A DNA stretch of 64,000 nt from Candidatus Daviesbacteria bacterium RIFCSPHIGHO2_12_FULL_37_16. Lineage in GTDB: Bacteria > Patescibacteriota > Microgenomatia > Daviesbacterales > UBA10151. Positions 9,288 to 63,576 of this stretch are shown in pieces; the stretch's first letter is position 1, and each line of letters begins with the position of its first letter. The notes beneath the pieces were generated by a model. The model ran no database searches, was not told the DNA's origin, and was given only the letters and a program-made list of their open reading frames with translations. The DNA lies in assembly GCA_001776785.1 (NCBI GenBank), contig MFDF01000002.1, positions 6,894 through 70,893 on the forward strand. The letters are read 5' to 3'. The position numbers and the translations under genes were made by a program.

Positions 9288-10166
9288 ATGAATGTATCTA
9301 TCGTTATACCAAATTGGAATGGGGAGGAAAGATTAAGAAGAAACTTACCTAAGGTTTTAGAGGTGGGTGATGTTGATGAAATAATTGTAGTTGATGACGG
9401 GTCAACTGATGGAAGTGTGCAACTTTTAGAAAGGGAATTTCCAAAAGTAAAATTAATAAAAAAGCAAAAAAATTCCGGTTTTTCTTCAACTGTAAATTTG
9501 GGGGTAAAAGAAGCAAAAGGGGAATTAATATTCCTTCTCAATTCTGATGCTGTTCCAGCAAGAGACTGCTTAAAATTTATACTTCCACATTTTAAAGATC
9601 CAAGGGTTTTTAGTGTGGGATTAAATAATGGTGGTTCATGGTCCTGGGCCAAATTTGAAGATGGATATTTTTGGCACTATCAGTCAAAAGAAAAAACACC
9701 AAAGATCCACCAGACTCTTTGGGTTTCAGGGGGGAGTGGTGTTTTTAGAAAAGATATCTGGGAAAAACTAGGAGGGTTAGATGAGCTTTTTGACCCATTT
9801 TATGAGGAGGATTTGGATTTAGGTTATAGGGCAACCAAAAGAGGGTATATTAATTTATGGGAACCAAAAGCAATAGTTGAGCATGGTAAAACAAAAGGTG
9901 TAATAGAAGAAAATTTTTCTAAATCAAGTGTTTCAGCTATTGCCCAGAGAAATCAGCTTTTGTTTATCTGGAAAAATATTACAGATGAAGATTTGTTTAT
10001 GCAGCATAAAATCAGTCTAATAAAAAAATTATTAATTAGTCCGAAGTATTGGTCAGTATTGATTTCAGCTTTAGGGAAAATGGGTAAGTTGAGATCTAAA
10101 AGACTGAGAGAGATAAAAGATGAAGCAATTTCTGATAAAGAGATCTTGAAAAAGTTTAAGGATTGA
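9288..10166 (+). CDS. glycosyltransferase family 2
   Basis: VSIVIPNWNGEE...VVDDGSTDGS and LNSDA (DxD) motif. Confidence 0.7.
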   Translation: MNVSIVIPNWNGEERLRRNLPKVLEVGDVDEIIVVDDGSTDGSVQLLEREFPKVKLIKKQKNSGFSSTVNLGVKEAKGELIFLLNSDAVPARDCLKFILPHFKDPRVFSVGLNNGGSWSWAKFEDGYFWHYQSKEKTPKIHQTLWVSGGSGVFRKDIWEKLGGLDELFDPFYEEDLDLGYRATKRGYINLWEPKAIVEHGKTKGVIEENFSKSSVSAIAQRNQLLFIWKNITDEDLFMQHKISLIKKLLISPKYWSVLISALGKMGKLRSKRLREIKDEAISDKEILKKFKD

Positions 10167-22473: not shown

Positions 22474-23358
22474 TCATAGTTTTTCAATTACTCTAAGCTT
22501 TCCTGAGCGGGCGCGGGGGTTTTTAGAAATTTCTTCTTCAGTTGGTTCAAGAGGTTTGTCTGTTAATATTTTGGCTTTACCAGATGTTTCGAATTCTTTA
22601 AAAGAGTTTTTGACAATCCTGTCTTCCAGGGAGTGGAAGCTGATGATTGTAAGGCGGCCGCCTGGTTCTAACACTTCAAAAGCTTGGGGGAGAGTATCTT
22701 TTAGGGTATTTAGTTCATCATTAACAACAATCCTCAAAGCTTGAAAAACCCTGGTTGCAGGATGAGTCCTGTCTGAGGGAGTTCTTCTTCTGACAGATAA
22801 AATTATATTAGCCAGTTCATTGGTAGTTTCGATTTGTTTCTTTTTTCTATACTCCACAATTTTTCTGGCAATCTGTCTGGAAAAATTCTCCTCTCCTAAT
22901 TTCCAGAAAAGTTCTGCCAGTTCCTTTTCATGAAGACCATTTATTAAGTCTTTGGCAGTTGCAGTGTTTTTAGTCTGGTCCATTCTCATATCTAATGAAG
23001 CATCTTTATTAAAACTAAAGCCTCTTTCTGCTTTTTCCAACTGATGAGTAGATATTCCCAGATCAAACAAAATTCCTAAGGGTTTGATATTATATTTTCT
23101 AACAATTTGCTCTAGGTGGATAAAATTGTTATGTTCTAAAATTAATCTGCCTGAACTTAGATACCCACTAAGTTTATCTGAGACTTCCTTGATGGAACTG
23201 TGGTCTAAGTCTATCCCCAAAACATTGCCGCCCTTTTCCAGAATCCCTTTAGTGTGGCCACCTCCTCCAAGATTGCAATCTATGTACCACATACCTGGTT
23301 TGATATCCATGTATCCTAGTACCTCGTTAAGCATGGCAGGCTTGTGATAATTGCTCAT
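22474..23358 (-). CDS. rsmH: 16S rRNA (cytosine1402-N4)-methyltransferase RsmH (MraW)
   Basis: N-terminal HKPAMLNEVL...DCNLGGGGHT, a full-length match to the RsmH family. Located about 7 kb from, and on the opposite strand to, the dcw cluster. Confidence 0.85.
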   Translation of the reverse strand: MSNYHKPAMLNEVLGYMDIKPGMWYIDCNLGGGGHTKGILEKGGNVLGIDLDHSSIKEVSDKLSGYLSSGRLILEHNNFIHLEQIVRKYNIKPLGILFDLGISTHQLEKAERGFSFNKDASLDMRMDQTKNTATAKDLINGLHEKELAELFWKLGEENFSRQIARKIVEYRKKKQIETTNELANIILSVRRRTPSDRTHPATRVFQALRIVVNDELNTLKDTLPQAFEVLEPGGRLTIISFHSLEDRIVKNSFKEFETSGKAKILTDKPLEPTEEEISKNPRARSGKLRVIEKL

Positions 23359-28127: not shown

Positions 28128-28147
28128 TATTTTTAACAGTAATGTTT

Positions 28148-28272
28148 AAGTCGCTCATCAGAGCACAAAGTACCGCTCGGACCGAATTCCTCGCTGTAGG
28201 ATCGCAAGTTACCAGGCAACTGCATAACTTGCTCTCCAACTACTTTGTTGCTTCTGATTTCGCGACTTTGCA
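28148..28272 (+). ncRNA. conserved structured intergenic element, copy A (candidate novel ncRNA or cis-regulatory RNA)
   Basis: GC-rich 125 nt in a 257-nt gap. Shares sequence blocks and three helices whose stems differ in sequence but stay complementary with 63446-63576: hairpin GCAAGTTA/TAACTTGC with conserved loop TACCAGGCAACTGCA, helix ACAAAGT/ACTTTGT, and mini-hairpin GGA-CCGAAT-TCC. Confidence 0.4.
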
Positions 28273-28384
28273 AATTTTAAATAATTATGAATAGTGATCA
28301 AAATTTAATGGAAAAAATTGTAGCCCTTTGTAAGGAAACCTTGTTTTTGTTCGCTCCGCTCACAAAAATAAAAGAAGGGTTAAG

Positions 28385-29695
28385 ATGATTAATGATTTAA
28401 TGGATAAGATAGTAGCTTTGTGTAAGCGACGTGGATTTGTTTATCCTGGGTCTGAGATTTATGGAGGGTTAGCTGGAACTTGGGATTATGGACCTGCAGG
28501 TGCATTAATGAAGAAAAATTTGAAAGATCTCTGGTGGAAAGAGATGGTTCAATTAAGAGATGATGTTGTTGGGCTTGACGGGGCAATTATGATGAACCCC
28601 AGGGCATGGGAGGCATCAGGGCATGTTGAAGCTTTTGTTGACCCCCTGGTTGAGTGCAAAATTTGCCACCAAAGATTTAGGGCAGATAAATTAGAAGAGA
28701 TTGAAGAGCATACCAAAAACCATGGGGGTATGATGGTTGACTGGACTGAGCCAGAGCAGTTTAACCTATTGGTTAAAGCGTATTTGGGCGTTATTGAGGG
28801 AAAACAGTCTGAGATTTATTTAAGAGGAGAAATTACTAATGGTGTCCATGTAAATTTTAAAAATGTAATGGACTCAACAAGAGTAAAAATTCCTTTTGGA
28901 ATTGCCCAGATTGGAAAAGCTTTCAGGAATGAGATTACTCCAGGAAATTTTACTTTTAGATCCAGAGAGTTTGAACAGATGGAGGTCCAGTTTTATATAA
29001 AGCCAGTAGATGAAGAAGGTAAGAAGTGGTTTGAATACTGGAAGCAAAACAGGATGGACTGGTATTTATCATTAGGTATGAAAAAAGAAAACTTAAGGTT
29101 CAGGGACCATGAAGACAAGGAAAGGGCGCATTATGCAAAGGCTGCAACTGATATTGAATACAATGCCCCCTGGGGTTGGCAGGAGTTTATGGGAATTCAT
29201 CATCGTGGTGACTGGGATTTATCTAGACATGAAAAATTTAGCGGACAAAATTTAAAGGTCCGCGATATTGAGACAAATGAGGAATACTTTCCTTGGGACA
29301 TTGAGACATCTGCAGGTGTAGATAGATCTTTTCTTTTTTTACTTATTGATTCATATAGGGCAGAGGGAGGAAGAGTTTGGTTGCAACTTGATCCAAGGCT
29401 TGCTCCATATAAAGTGGCTGTATTTCCTCTATTGGGTAACAAACCGGAACTTATAGATAAAGCTAAAAAGATTTTTAATGATTTAAAGAAAGATTATATG
29501 ATTGCCTGGGATGATAGGGGGAATATTGGGAAAAGATATGCTAGCCAGGATGAAATTGGTACTCCCTATTGCATTACTGTAGATTTTGATACACTAGAAG
29601 ATGAAAGTGTGACAGTGAGGGATAGGGATAGTGCAAAACAGGAGAGAGTGAAGATTGCTGAATTGAAGCAATATATAATGGAAAGATTAAGGTAG
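28385..29695 (+). CDS. glyQS: glycine--tRNA ligase, alpha2 (archaeal/eukaryotic-like) type
   Basis: Full-length class II GlyRS similarity from the N-terminus (DKIVALCKRRGFVYPGSEIYGGLAGTWDYGP). Good SD (AAGAAGGG) upstream. Confidence 0.85.
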   Translation: MINDLMDKIVALCKRRGFVYPGSEIYGGLAGTWDYGPAGALMKKNLKDLWWKEMVQLRDDVVGLDGAIMMNPRAWEASGHVEAFVDPLVECKICHQRFRADKLEEIEEHTKNHGGMMVDWTEPEQFNLLVKAYLGVIEGKQSEIYLRGEITNGVHVNFKNVMDSTRVKIPFGIAQIGKAFRNEITPGNFTFRSREFEQMEVQFYIKPVDEEGKKWFEYWKQNRMDWYLSLGMKKENLRFRDHEDKERAHYAKAATDIEYNAPWGWQEFMGIHHRGDWDLSRHEKFSGQNLKVRDIETNEEYFPWDIETSAGVDRSFLFLLIDSYRAEGGRVWLQLDPRLAPYKVAVFPLLGNKPELIDKAKKIFNDLKKDYMIAWDDRGNIGKRYASQDEIGTPYCITVDFDTLEDESVTVRDRDSAKQERVKIAELKQYIMERLR

Positions 29696-29728: not shown

Positions 29729-30619
29729 ATGTTAGACAAAGCTAAGGTTTTTTTATCCAATAGAACCAATTTAATACTGGTGGGGGTTTTGGTTTTACTT
29801 TTAGCTGGGGGAATTTTTGCATTCCAGAGATTTTTTGCAGGAGACCCTAATGCAATTGTAGAGGAGATTGATCTAGCCTTTGATCCAGAGGGGCCATATG
29901 CACTTTTGTATCCCAGAAGAGATGGGAATGCTTTAAACCTTTCACTTAAAAGAACTGGAACCTATGACAAAATTTCCTATGAGTTGGCTTATGTTGCCAA
30001 TGCTGATGCTACAGGTTCTAAAGACTCTGAGAGGTTAGTAGAGGATGGGATTTCCGGAATAGACAGAGGAGTTATGGGAGAGGTGGATACATCAAAGAAA
30101 AAATCAGAGTATGAACAGGAGATTTTATTTGGGACTTGTTCTAAGAATGTCTGCAAATATGACCAGGGTGTAGAGAATGGGACTTTAACTTTGCATATAA
30201 GAAAAGGCAAAGAGGCCTACAGAATGGTTACCCAATGGAAGTTACAAAAACCTGATGTAGCTTTAGGGAAATTATCGTCTGGAGATGAGCATTTCAAATA
30301 TGAGACAACTGCTTCAAGAGAGGAGCTGACTTTAGTTGGATACACTATAATTAATGAGTTAACTGGAGTGCCAAAACTTCCTTCCGGTAAAGAAATTTTA
30401 GGAACTGTTTATGCTCTAAATGTGCCTTTGGCAAAAAGTTTTCCAAAGGGGGCTGTTAGTTTTGAATTAGCTGAAAACCCTCCAGGGGATGCAAAAATTG
30501 CCAGGTTTTTGGATTCTAAAAATGACTGGGAGATCTTAGAAACTAAAATTAATGGGAGCAAACTTTCTGCAGATTCAGGGGGTGAGGGTATATTTGCAAT
30601 TCTTGCTGATTCTAAATGA
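29729..30619 (+). CDS. hypothetical membrane-anchored extracytoplasmic protein
   Basis: Single N-terminal TM (LILVGVLVLLLAGGIFAF). No recognisable domain. Confidence 0.35.
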   Translation: MLDKAKVFLSNRTNLILVGVLVLLLAGGIFAFQRFFAGDPNAIVEEIDLAFDPEGPYALLYPRRDGNALNLSLKRTGTYDKISYELAYVANADATGSKDSERLVEDGISGIDRGVMGEVDTSKKKSEYEQEILFGTCSKNVCKYDQGVENGTLTLHIRKGKEAYRMVTQWKLQKPDVALGKLSSGDEHFKYETTASREELTLVGYTIINELTGVPKLPSGKEILGTVYALNVPLAKSFPKGAVSFELAENPPGDAKIARFLDSKNDWEILETKINGSKLSADSGGEGIFAILADSK

Positions 30620-30724
30620 ACTACCCCGCAGCAAGCTGACGGGGTATCGCTTTGCGAAAGTTCTTGTTTCGGATAGTTGTAACCTTGCAGTAAACTGCTA
30701 GGTATTTTATGAAACAATAAATTT

Positions 30725-43065: not shown

Positions 43066-43161
43066 TCAGACATTAACTTCTTGAAGCAAATTCAATAAAA
43101 TTTTACAATACAATCTATGCTTAAACCTTTTCTAACAATTTTATCCACATGGAGTAAATTG

Positions 43162-43701
43162 TTAGGTAAAGAAGTAAGAGATTAGTTTATTTTGGCTTTC
43201 AAGAGAGTTTGCTTCAATGTATTCAACTTCTGCAGCTACCCCAAAATAGTCCCTTAAGTATTTAACTATCTCAAAACAAGGATAGGGGTGAATAAAAACA
43301 CTGTTTTGCAGTTTATAGAAACCAATCTCTTTCATCTTTTTCCTAAGTAAAAATCTTTCATTATTTTTACTGATTGGGATATCAAAAATTATTATCCTCC
43401 ATTTCCCATCCCAACTTATTGGTTTTTCAATTTTTAAATTATCAATCTGATATCTTCTTAGCTTTGCTTTACCATCTTTTGTAAGCTTTATAACTGAAAC
43501 TCCCTTTTTATTCTTAATTATTTCTACTAAGCTTCTTTTTTGAAGTCTTTTTATTTCCTGGTTTATTCTTGCGAGATCAACTTTTTTAAGTAATGGTAAG
43601 ACTTTAGCAAGACCAGGTGCTACAGACACAATAGGAACAATACCAATAATGCCCAGTGCAATTAAAATATTTTTTGCAACATCTTTTTGTTTTTCAGTCA
43701 T
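43162..43701 (-). CDS. PaaX-like winged-helix transcriptional regulator with N-terminal membrane anchor (short form)
   Basis: N-terminal TM, a wHTH-like segment and the WDGKW-containing segment (WDGKWRIIIFDIP...YKLQNSVFIHP) that aligns to PaaX WDGKWLLLL and superficially resembles Cas2. Confidence 0.45.
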   Translation of the reverse strand: MTEKQKDVAKNILIALGIIGIVPIVSVAPGLAKVLPLLKKVDLARINQEIKRLQKRSLVEIIKNKKGVSVIKLTKDGKAKLRRYQIDNLKIEKPISWDGKWRIIIFDIPISKNNERFLLRKKMKEIGFYKLQNSVFIHPYPCFEIVKYLRDYFGVAAEVEYIEANSLESQNKLISYFFT

Positions 43702-43863
43702 AAGAATAGTCTATTGAATTTTATAACAAAATGCACTACGTGGATAAAAATGTTATCGATACTTATATTTATAACTTTAATTACTTTAATTGATAGTTAA
43801 AATAATACCCAGACCAATTTATTAGGTTGCAGGAGGGCTTCAACTTCGGCTACAATACTACGT

Positions 43864-63445: not shown

Positions 63446-63576
63446 TGCGAGTCCGATCGTCGGATCATAAAAGTACCGTTCGGGTCGAATCCCTCACTAT
63501 GTGAGAAAAAATTACCAATCAACTGCAGAATTTTTTCTCAGATTACTTTTATTGATTCTGACTTCGCGTCCTTTGC
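63446..63576 (+). ncRNA. conserved structured intergenic element, copy B (candidate novel ncRNA or cis-regulatory RNA)
   Basis: Shares the AAAGTACCGTTCGGGTCGAATCCCTC block, a hairpin GAGAAAAAATT/AATTTTTTCTC with loop ACCAATCAACTGCAG, helix ATAAAAGT/ACTTTTAT and tail TTCTGACTTCGCG with copy A. Two small track ORFs here are likely spurious. Confidence 0.4.

Follow-up and report, generated by a model that had tools for sequence, protein, structure and literature searches.

What is an element of about 125 nt, folded almost throughout, doing in the gap between recO and the glycyl-tRNA synthetase gene (glyQS) of a Daviesbacteria genome? The element lies in a 64,000-nt stretch of contig MFDF01000002.1 from Candidatus Daviesbacteria bacterium RIFCSPHIGHO2_12_FULL_37_16 (hereafter the window, to which unlabeled positions refer), where it occurs twice, both times on the + strand. 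A first-pass annotation of the window had described it as a structured RNA upstream of glyQS. The element appears to be previously undescribed, and it is found in one or two groundwater Daviesbacteria genomes of the Rifle aquifer, among unrelated housekeeping genes. Because its copies are dispersed between unrelated genes and in few genomes, we read it as a repeat rather than as a regulator of glyQS. By analogy with known repeats, we give an even chance to its being a lineage-specific, dispersed and co-transcribed structured repeat of the ERIC/bcr1 kind, which would act on mRNA processing or stability.

Two copies in the window

The folded units were delimited as follows, with their scores against the covariance model (CM).

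28147-28269, + strand: copy A, whole folded unit, between the recO stop codon (28127) and the start of a relic glyQS (28287); CM match of 152.3 bits
63449-63573, + strand: copy B, whole folded unit; CM match of 158.4 bits

Copy B starts 4 nt past the stop codon of a SET-domain gene (63444) and lies 45 nt before the GTG start codon (63619) of a gene encoding an HtpX-type protease (Peptidase_M48). The gene 3′ of copy A encodes a class II glycyl-tRNA synthetase (Pfam HGTP_anticodon and tRNA-synt_2b; 117 relatives). Both copies are sense to their flanking genes, in agreement with the + strand placement between + strand genes reported by the first-pass annotation. The sequence blocks that it described as shared are also present at its positions. 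Indeed, a 26-nt block, AAAGTACCGYTCGGRYCGAATYCCTC, has exactly two matches in the 64-kb window (28167 and 63470, both on the + strand) and none in 100 dinucleotide-preserving shuffles, even with up to three mismatches. The islands themselves were correctly placed, but their limits had to be redrawn to those given above, with a basal helix four pairs longer than proposed. Similarly, copy A does lie close to glyQS, 15 nt upstream of a start codon, but this is the start of the relic and not the working one. The description as a GC-rich island suits copy A (48.8% GC vs 34.2% for the window, within the top 0.7% of 125-nt windows) but less so copy B (41.2%, only within the top 12%).

In MAFFT alignments, copies A and B share 81-82% identity. 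Copy A was found identical at the same site in five independent assemblies, and copy B in eight further assemblies. The stretch as a whole recurs in many independent assemblies, including contig MFCL01000004.1 (GCA_001775325.1), from a Rifle groundwater genome. Judged from the flanking proteins and from the relatives of GlyQS, the window belongs to Candidatus Daviesbacteria, in the Microgenomates group of the Candidate Phyla Radiation (CPR).

Fold of the element

The element takes the shape of a Y in which nearly all bases are paired. A long basal helix (P0/P1) leads to a tight three-way junction, with strands of 2, 1 and 0 nt, that carries a side hairpin (P2) and a long hairpin (P3). The parts of the fold are the following.

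28147-28154 with 28262-28269 (copy A), 63449-63456 with 63566-63573 (copy B), + strand: P0
28157-28172 with 28241-28258 (copy A), 63459-63475 with 63544-63562 (copy B), + strand: P1
28175-28194 (copy A), 63478-63497 (copy B), + strand: P2
28196-28240 (copy A), 63499-63543 (copy B), + strand: P3
28147-28172 (copy A), + strand: 5′ strands of P0 and P1, partners of 28262-28269 (P0) and 28241-28258 (P1)
28241-28269 (copy A), + strand: 3′ strands of P1 and P0, conserved UUCGCG tail included

Single-sequence folding recovered all three helices named by the first-pass annotation as well as the terminal pairing it had noticed in copy A. Copy A folds at -48.3 kcal/mol (z = -5.26), with none of 200 shuffles folding as well, and copy B at -35.9 kcal/mol (z = -2.75), with 2 of 200 shuffles as good.

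Once the further copies described below are included, five distinct sequences define the conserved features. The P2 hairpin, which reads GC-UC-GGA [CCGAAU] UCC-UC-GC in copy A, combines a UC/UC internal loop with a YNGAAU hexaloop, of which positions G42, A43, A44 and U45 are invariant in all five copies. In four of the five, copy A among them, P3 has an internal UC/UC loop as well. Its apical motif is GCAWCUGCA in four copies, copy B having UCAACUGCA instead, and the apical loop of copy A is ACCAGGCAACUGCAU. The ACCA of this loop, taken at first as part of the conserved loop, is not kept in the further copies, the variants among copies being ACCA, ACCG, AUCG and UCCU. Close to the junction, a near-invariant core is recognized, AAAGUACCG.UCGG..GAAU.CCUC.CU ... 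UACUUU. At the other extremity, P0 is extended by four pairs (GAGG/CCUU) that become AAGU/ACUU in copy A, i.e., a compensatory change. Conservation begins and stops abruptly at the base of P0, and the flank alignment shows no conservation beyond it.

Two further structural features were considered and set aside. A pseudoknot pairing the CGAA of the P2 loop with the UUCG tail is unsupported, the sole variant copy having changed on both sides to A·A, and a hammerhead-type core is ruled out by junction strands of just 2, 1 and 0 nt.

Further copies and their distribution

A 19-base pattern searched over the JGI metagenome contigs led to four real loci (L081, L083, L084 and L085), which match the CM at 124-143 bits. 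L081, L084 and L085 are one sequence from different samples, with two copies about 700 nt apart around a cytidylate-kinase-like gene. The first has a PD-(D/E)XK nuclease gene upstream and this CMP-kinase-like gene downstream, and the second lies upstream of a phosphomannomutase (PMM) gene. In L083, a single copy precedes uvrB by about 20 nt, the intergenic region being divergent. These loci bring three further distinct copies and a total of five, among which copy B is the most divergent, with 70-75% identity to the others. In terms of density, two copies are found in about 83 kb of the window genome and three in about 38-48 kb of contigs Ga0075715_107/_125.

On the minus strand, a reading frame is open across four of the five copies, copy B breaking it. 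One such open reading frame (ORF), antisense over a copy at L081 3064-3303 (minus), is deposited as a 79-aa "hypothetical protein" of Candidatus Daviesbacteria (OGE16372.1 / OGE35645.1). Because it was deposited for a Daviesbacteria metagenome-assembled genome, the L081- and L083-type copies come from Rifle Daviesbacteria too, and they probably represent a second genome related to that of the window.

Beyond these loci the element was not retrieved. A strict 21-base pattern gave no copy in 185,579 species-representative genomes, strict and relaxed patterns gave none in IMG/VR, and BLAST against phage and plasmid collections returned chance matches only. The first-pass annotation had proposed to build a CM from the two copies and to search related genomes with it. 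Neither this two-copy model nor a five-copy one found a match in the glyQS neighborhoods of 80 related species (1.4 Mb). GlyQS homologues drop from 100% straight to 85% identity or less, with no intermediate genomes between. Two candidates from relatives, L073 with a weak CM match (18.8 bits) and the L033 spacer with its P2-like hairpin, were judged not homologous on inspection.

Compensatory changes between copies

In copies A and B, RNAalifold predicted 37 pairs, of which 10 had changed on both sides with pairing kept. Across the five distinct sequences, 98.9% of the pair cells are standard and 13 of the 37 pairs have changed on both sides. None of 500 shuffles reached this level of covariation, and controls in which the register was slid gave 34-46% pairing with zero to two double-changed pairs. 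The changes are spread over the Y: four of 16 pairs in P1, two of five in P2 and seven of 12 in P3 have changed on both sides, each of these helices being 100% paired, and P0 (seven pairs, 85.7% paired) has one compensatory change specific to copy A (A-U for G-C). All helices are maintained in this way despite differences of up to 25-30% among the copies. Taken overall, variability is the same in paired and in unpaired columns (29/74 vs 16/41).

The conclusion drawn earlier from two copies, that compensatory changes mark a structured element, was thus strengthened by three more. It had also been argued that additional copies lacking the helices would point to a mobile repeat; further copies do exist, and all of them keep the helices through compensatory changes. 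The opposition between structured RNA and repeat that underlies this argument does not hold. The element is structured, but the choice is a false one: it is also a dispersed repeat, and known repeats such as bcr1 keep their fold by compensation too (PMC3184786).

In copy B, every pair of P1, P2 and P3 is standard. Since this copy is only 70-75% identical to the others and yet has kept all its helices, it can be taken not to be a decaying relic. From these comparisons, either each copy would be selected for the fold, or the copies would derive from diverged masters so selected.

A short coding sequence, or mere chance similarity, has a negligible probability as an explanation of these data. Although the minus-strand frame is open in most copies and was once deposited as a gene, it is broken in copy B, and the substitutions are paired across helices rather than synonymous, in line with the earlier view that the element is not protein-coding. 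In addition, when 5.8 billion proteins were searched with profiles of both open frames, also with a view to spurious ORFs called on other copies, nothing past the OGE16372.1 / OGE35645.1 ORF was returned. This ORF is very probably a spurious gene call, given the break of the frame in copy B and the lack of homologues among these proteins. As for chance, the shared blocks are far above chance expectation.

RNA or DNA as the folded molecule

The + strand has six G-U cells and no C-A or A-C cell, a mild argument for this strand being the one that folds. The two strands are not distinguished by folding energy. All five copies are sense relative to their flanking genes. RNA is favoured as the folded molecule from these two observations, the G-U pairs of the + strand and the uniform sense orientation.

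The alternative is an element acting as DNA, whose single-stranded fold would serve a transposase or a recombinase, as in REPIN/RAYT, IS200/IS605 or attC systems, and whose compensatory changes would result from hairpin-templated (quasi-palindrome) correction. We consider this improbable. It would agree with the complementary strand of copy A folding as well or better (-54.4 vs -47.6 kcal/mol), with the dispersed and lineage-restricted distribution, with insertion relative to relatives and with two ends that are inverted repeats of each other. However, G-U pairs occur on the + strand only (six cells vs none) and the orientation is uniform, and the bulges and the two UC/UC internal loops are conserved, not "perfected." Moreover, inspection of the sequences revealed neither GTAG/CGTC tags of repetitive extragenic palindromes (REP) at the ends nor RYYYAAC/GTTRRRY attC cores. 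Finally, no RAYT, TnpA/TnpB, integrase, other transposase or reverse transcriptase was found among about 59 ORFs compared with Pfam (39 in about 37 kb of the window, outside 37-60 kb, and 20 in L081/L083/L084).

The individual DNA systems were compared in turn. REP/REPIN units are 20-40 nt long, carry a GTAG or CGTC tag at one end, form inverted pairs and are accompanied by a RAYT gene. The present element was rejected as such, since it has no consistent tag (CGTC in three of five copies, CATC or CACC in the others), its arms are not palindromic and no RAYT is present in the available sequence. Integron attC sites have RYYYAAC and GTTRRRY cores at the base of the hairpin and stand in cassette arrays beside intI. 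Here, no AAC/GTT cores are found at the helix base, the window copies are surrounded by housekeeping genes at a distance of 35 kb from each other, and the annotated ORFs include no integrase. The end signatures of IS200/605 are not present either.

The element does share traits with MITEs (miniature inverted-repeat transposable elements). Terminal inverted repeats are present, the 5′ GAGGUCGCUCGUCAGA being complementary to the 3′ UCUGACUUCGCGCCCUU within P0/P1, but self-complementarity spans the whole element and not the ends alone. The copies are dispersed over five loci, and the recO/glyQS site is empty in relatives. TA is found beside some ends, as expected by chance in a genome of 66% AT and within stop codons.

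The recO/glyQS junction: leader or insertion

The gap between recO and glyQS is 257 nt in the window vs a median of about 5 nt in 53 relatives with recO upstream (estimated gaps). In 39 of these 53, recO lies within ±70 nt of glyQS, and in close relatives it runs straight into glyQS. From this difference, the element is, on the sequence evidence, an insertion made in this lineage at the recO/glyQS junction.

The site itself bears possible marks of the event. A relic 5′ end of glyQS is recognized at 28287-28388 as a 33-codon upstream ORF (MNSDQNLMEKIVALCK...) like the N-terminus of relatives (L001: MEKNNLMEKIVALCKRRGF). The ATGA in which this ORF terminates overlaps the working glyQS start, at 28385 (MINDLMDKIVALCKRRGF). 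Between the relic and the working starts are found an AT-rich hairpin (28341-28371; TTGTTTTTGT-11 nt-ACAAAAATAA) and a stretch, GAAGGGTTAAGATGA, similar to the recO 3′ end, GAAGGAGTTAAAGTAA. Given the relic N-terminus and the stretch like the 3′ end of recO, the junction seems to have been duplicated, perhaps restoring a ribosome-binding site after insertion of the element.

The link to glyQS that headed the first-pass annotation did not hold. None of the glyQS loci of 80 relatives has the element, and the other copies precede htpX, CMP-kinase-like, PMM and uvrB genes. As far as the sequences indicate, it is not a dedicated leader or regulator of glyQS. As for a gene-specific leader in general, the downstream genes are unrelated, and scans found no terminator or helix sequestering the Shine-Dalgarno sequence.

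More broadly, the element could still be a cis-acting 5′ leader, i.e., an RNA in the 5′ untranslated region (UTR) sensing a common signal (protein, small molecule, tRNA or temperature) and controlling whatever gene lies downstream. We regard this as unlikely. In four of the five copies, 15-50 nt separate the end of the element from a start codon, that of the relic glyQS for copy A, and all copies are sense. The L083 copy lies directly upstream of uvrB in a divergent region, with an extended -10-like site, TGGTAGAAT, and conservation of the junction core goes with covariation of the distal stems. Against this, the genes downstream (glyQS, htpX, CMP-kinase-like, PMM, uvrB) are unrelated, and the element is absent upstream of glyQS in the 80 relatives, some of which have a T-box there. 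The junction strands of 2, 1 and 0 nt leave no obvious ligand pocket, no platform for a terminator or for sequestering the Shine-Dalgarno sequence was found, and paired and unpaired columns vary equally.

Some relatives do have structured sequences at this locus. In the more distant Patescibacteria L046 (9784-9963) and L037 (equivalent spacer), a divergent T-box leader occupies the stretch between recO and glyQS. RF00230 matches it at 42.8 bits (E 2.5e-8), short of the gathering score of 93, and its canonical GGGUGGAACCGCG precedes a terminator hairpin. The recO-glyQS spacers of L017, L032, L033 (~9760-9960) and L053 are 110-230 nt long or more, GC-rich and strongly folding. That of L033 contains a GAGG-CAGAAU-CCUCGC hairpin resembling P2. 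These spacers show no CM homology to the element and have no Rfam match at the gathering threshold.

Genomic setting and transcription

The copies are set in short spacers within co-directional gene arrays. Where the upstream gene is co-directional, the fold starts 0-20 nt past its stop codon. Neither a sigma-70-type promoter nor an intrinsic terminator was detected above shuffle expectation at copies A, B and L083. The extended -10-like site of L083, about 14 nt before the element, was seen by eye, the consensus scan raising no flag there.

This setting bears on whether the copies could be paralogous trans-acting small RNAs, possibly cut from operon transcripts, whose apical loop or hexaloop would contact a target RNA or protein. 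The apical GCAWCUGCA (four of five copies) and the hexaloop GAAU (five of five) have persisted despite turnover of the stems, each genome has several diverged paralogues, two of them about 700 nt apart, and the GC-rich fold is stable in a genome of 34% GC. But there is no conserved promoter upstream or terminator downstream, conservation being confined to the limits set by the helix base, and the copies lie 0-20 nt past the upstream stop codon within tightly packed operons. We find this explanation slightly more improbable still than the DNA-level one.

Comparison with known families

With Rfam 15 (4227 models, among them those for T-box, tRNA, tmRNA, SRP, RNase P, 6S and Y RNA-like families, riboswitches and ribozymes) at the gathering threshold, the window yielded three ordinary tRNAs only and no match on the elements. 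At E ≤ 10, both window copies and the L081 copies gave chance-level matches only (Teg49 at 15 bits, snoR31 at 24 bits). ARAGORN, run on the window for tRNA, tmRNA and permuted forms, found the same three ordinary tRNAs and none at the elements. Hence, Rfam and ARAGORN agree with the earlier failure to recognize a riboswitch, T-box, signal recognition particle RNA, tmRNA or RNase P, and the match to a known Rfam family that would have spoken against a new element was searched for and not found.

Two RNA families called for closer comparison. A T-box leader has a conserved AGGGUGGNACCGCG in an antiterminator that competes with a terminator, and a Stem I with a specifier loop. The element resembles it in its position upstream of glyQS, in an ACCGC-like stretch and in the GGCA of the apical loop of four of the five copies. 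It differs in having no UGGN bulge, antiterminator/terminator pair or Stem I platform, and the GGCA loop also precedes PMM, CMP-kinase-like and uvrB genes. A T-box was rejected, since RF00230 gives no match at E ≤ 10 (its positive control, L046, reaches 42.8 bits), no antiterminator is found and the same loop stands before genes unconnected with amino acids. Mimicry of tRNA, suggested by the T-arm-like GGGUCGAAUCCC and ACCA, was rejected as well. A tRNA-like molecule has a T-loop of 7 nt and a 3′ NCCA, whereas the P2 loop has 6 nt with a variable first base (C in two copies) and the ACCA is not conserved.

Closer models are found among transcribed repeats. In the Bacillus cereus group, bcr1 (about 155 bp) is a dispersed and transcribed repeat with a largely double-stranded, cruciform-like RNA fold kept by compensation; it is flanked by 5-bp direct repeats, and some copies lack the structure (PMC3184786). 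The present element is likewise a small non-coding intergenic repeat, dispersed, not conserved in its distribution among relatives and compensated in its fold, transcription being the feature of bcr1. It differs in that no target duplication is seen, that the fold is kept in all five copies and that it forms a three-way junction with a conserved core, and the two have no sequence similarity.

ERIC sequences are enterobacterial and occur in both orientations. These imperfect palindromes of about 127 bp lie in transcribed intergenic regions and can alter the stability of flanking mRNA, and ERIC-type copies in Photorhabdus and Xenorhabdus have terminal inverted repeats with flanking TA (PMC3184786). 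The present element is of nearly the same size and is an imperfect palindrome too, but its copies are all sense, flanking TA is inconsistent and its host is a CPR bacterium. No similarity to ERIC was found by Rfam models or BLAST.

The Correia hairpin is a substrate of RNase III, and Correia elements, present in hundreds of copies, carry IHF sites and promoters and are flanked by TA target duplications. In Neisseria, these Correia/nemis repeats of 104-157 bp are intergenic and co-transcribed, their long hairpin RNA affects mRNA stability, and they are classed as MITEs with terminal inverted repeats (PMC3184786). Their RNase III/stability mechanism is the model for what is proposed here. In contrast, no consistent target duplication, IHF site or promoter consensus (A, B, L083) was found for the present element, of which five distinct copies are known.

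A repeat acting on mRNA

In the reading as a co-transcribed repeat, the element would be transcribed within polycistronic mRNA or the 5′-UTR of an mRNA, and the folded RNA would be the form under selection. By analogy, the near-fully double-stranded Y may be a generic RNA module recognized by protein between cistrons. Acting either as a cleavage site for a double-strand-specific nuclease of the RNase III type or as a protective stem, such a module would uncouple the flanking cistrons or set their stability, as for ERIC, Correia/nemis and bcr1. The copies would owe their spread to duplication, transposition or recombination and not to descent as the regulator of one gene.

Several observations weigh against this proposal. 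Only five distinct copies are known, and no polymorphism of occupancy is seen, both sites being filled by identical copies in every independent assembly of the window organism. The five-copy flank alignment shows no consistent direct repeat that would be a target-site duplication, and none of the mobility genes listed above was found in the scanned ORFs. In addition, the most conserved part is the junction core and not the termini, which is commoner for a protein- or ligand-binding RNA than for a transposon end.

The element may instead represent an unrecognized class of functional RNA of the Daviesbacteria lineage. Its core, its UC/UC loops and its YNGAAU and GCAWCUGCA loops would then form a protein-binding site or a catalytic or sensing fold that controls jointly a set of maintenance genes (recO/glyQS, uvrB, a neighboring PD-(D/E)XK nuclease gene, htpX). 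Although rather unlikely, this would disclose post-transcriptional regulation of a sort largely unexplored in CPR bacteria.

CPR bacteria have tiny, tightly packed genomes, and to our knowledge very few of their non-coding RNAs are known past the universal ones, known regulatory RNAs being scarce. It is unlikely that a 125-nt spacer element is junk in this context, because the genomes are compact and the fold has been kept through 25-30% divergence. If the repeat does act on mRNA processing or stability, it would offer an early handle on post-transcriptional control in uncultivated Daviesbacteria. What is new is a structured repeat family that is apparently undescribed, transcribed structured repeats being already known from other bacteria (PMC3184786). 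Its narrow range (one or two genomes, one aquifer) limits its present importance, and its function is put forward by analogy. It also calls for caution in annotation, as one copy stands in GenBank as a "hypothetical protein" and the copy beside glyQS is easily mistaken for an aminoacyl-tRNA-synthetase leader.

Other features of the window

A second structured intergenic module was found at 30611-30705 and at L081 3172-3300, with 84% identity over 55 nt and two compensatory pairs. It forms a small three-way junction, GAACU-[ACYCCGCAG YAAR CUG..CGGRGU]-AUC-[small hairpin]-AAGUUC, followed by a hairpin of the GCAG-UAAA-CUGC type. In L081 nothing separates it from a copy of the Y element, and in the window it lies after ORF 29729-30619 and before the dcw cluster. 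It has no Rfam match.

A palindromic motif of 33-40 nt (CTAACAATTT...AAATTGTTAG, 80-91% match) occurs at 23095-23134, 43128-43167 and 43719-43758. Two copies flank the minus-strand ORF 43162-43701, and one lies inside the 5′ part of an mraW-type gene. From its sequence, the motif looks like an operator for a DNA-binding protein.

Positions 1-25100 form a near-unbroken + strand array of glycosyltransferases, PMT_2-type mannosyltransferases, methyltransferases and sugar-nucleotide enzymes, which also holds a Wzy_C-type polymerase, a Bac_transf priming transferase and a DUF4012 protein. Its predicted gene content is that of a large cluster for surface polysaccharide or glycosylation. The dcw/mur cell-wall cluster starts at about 31 kb of the window.

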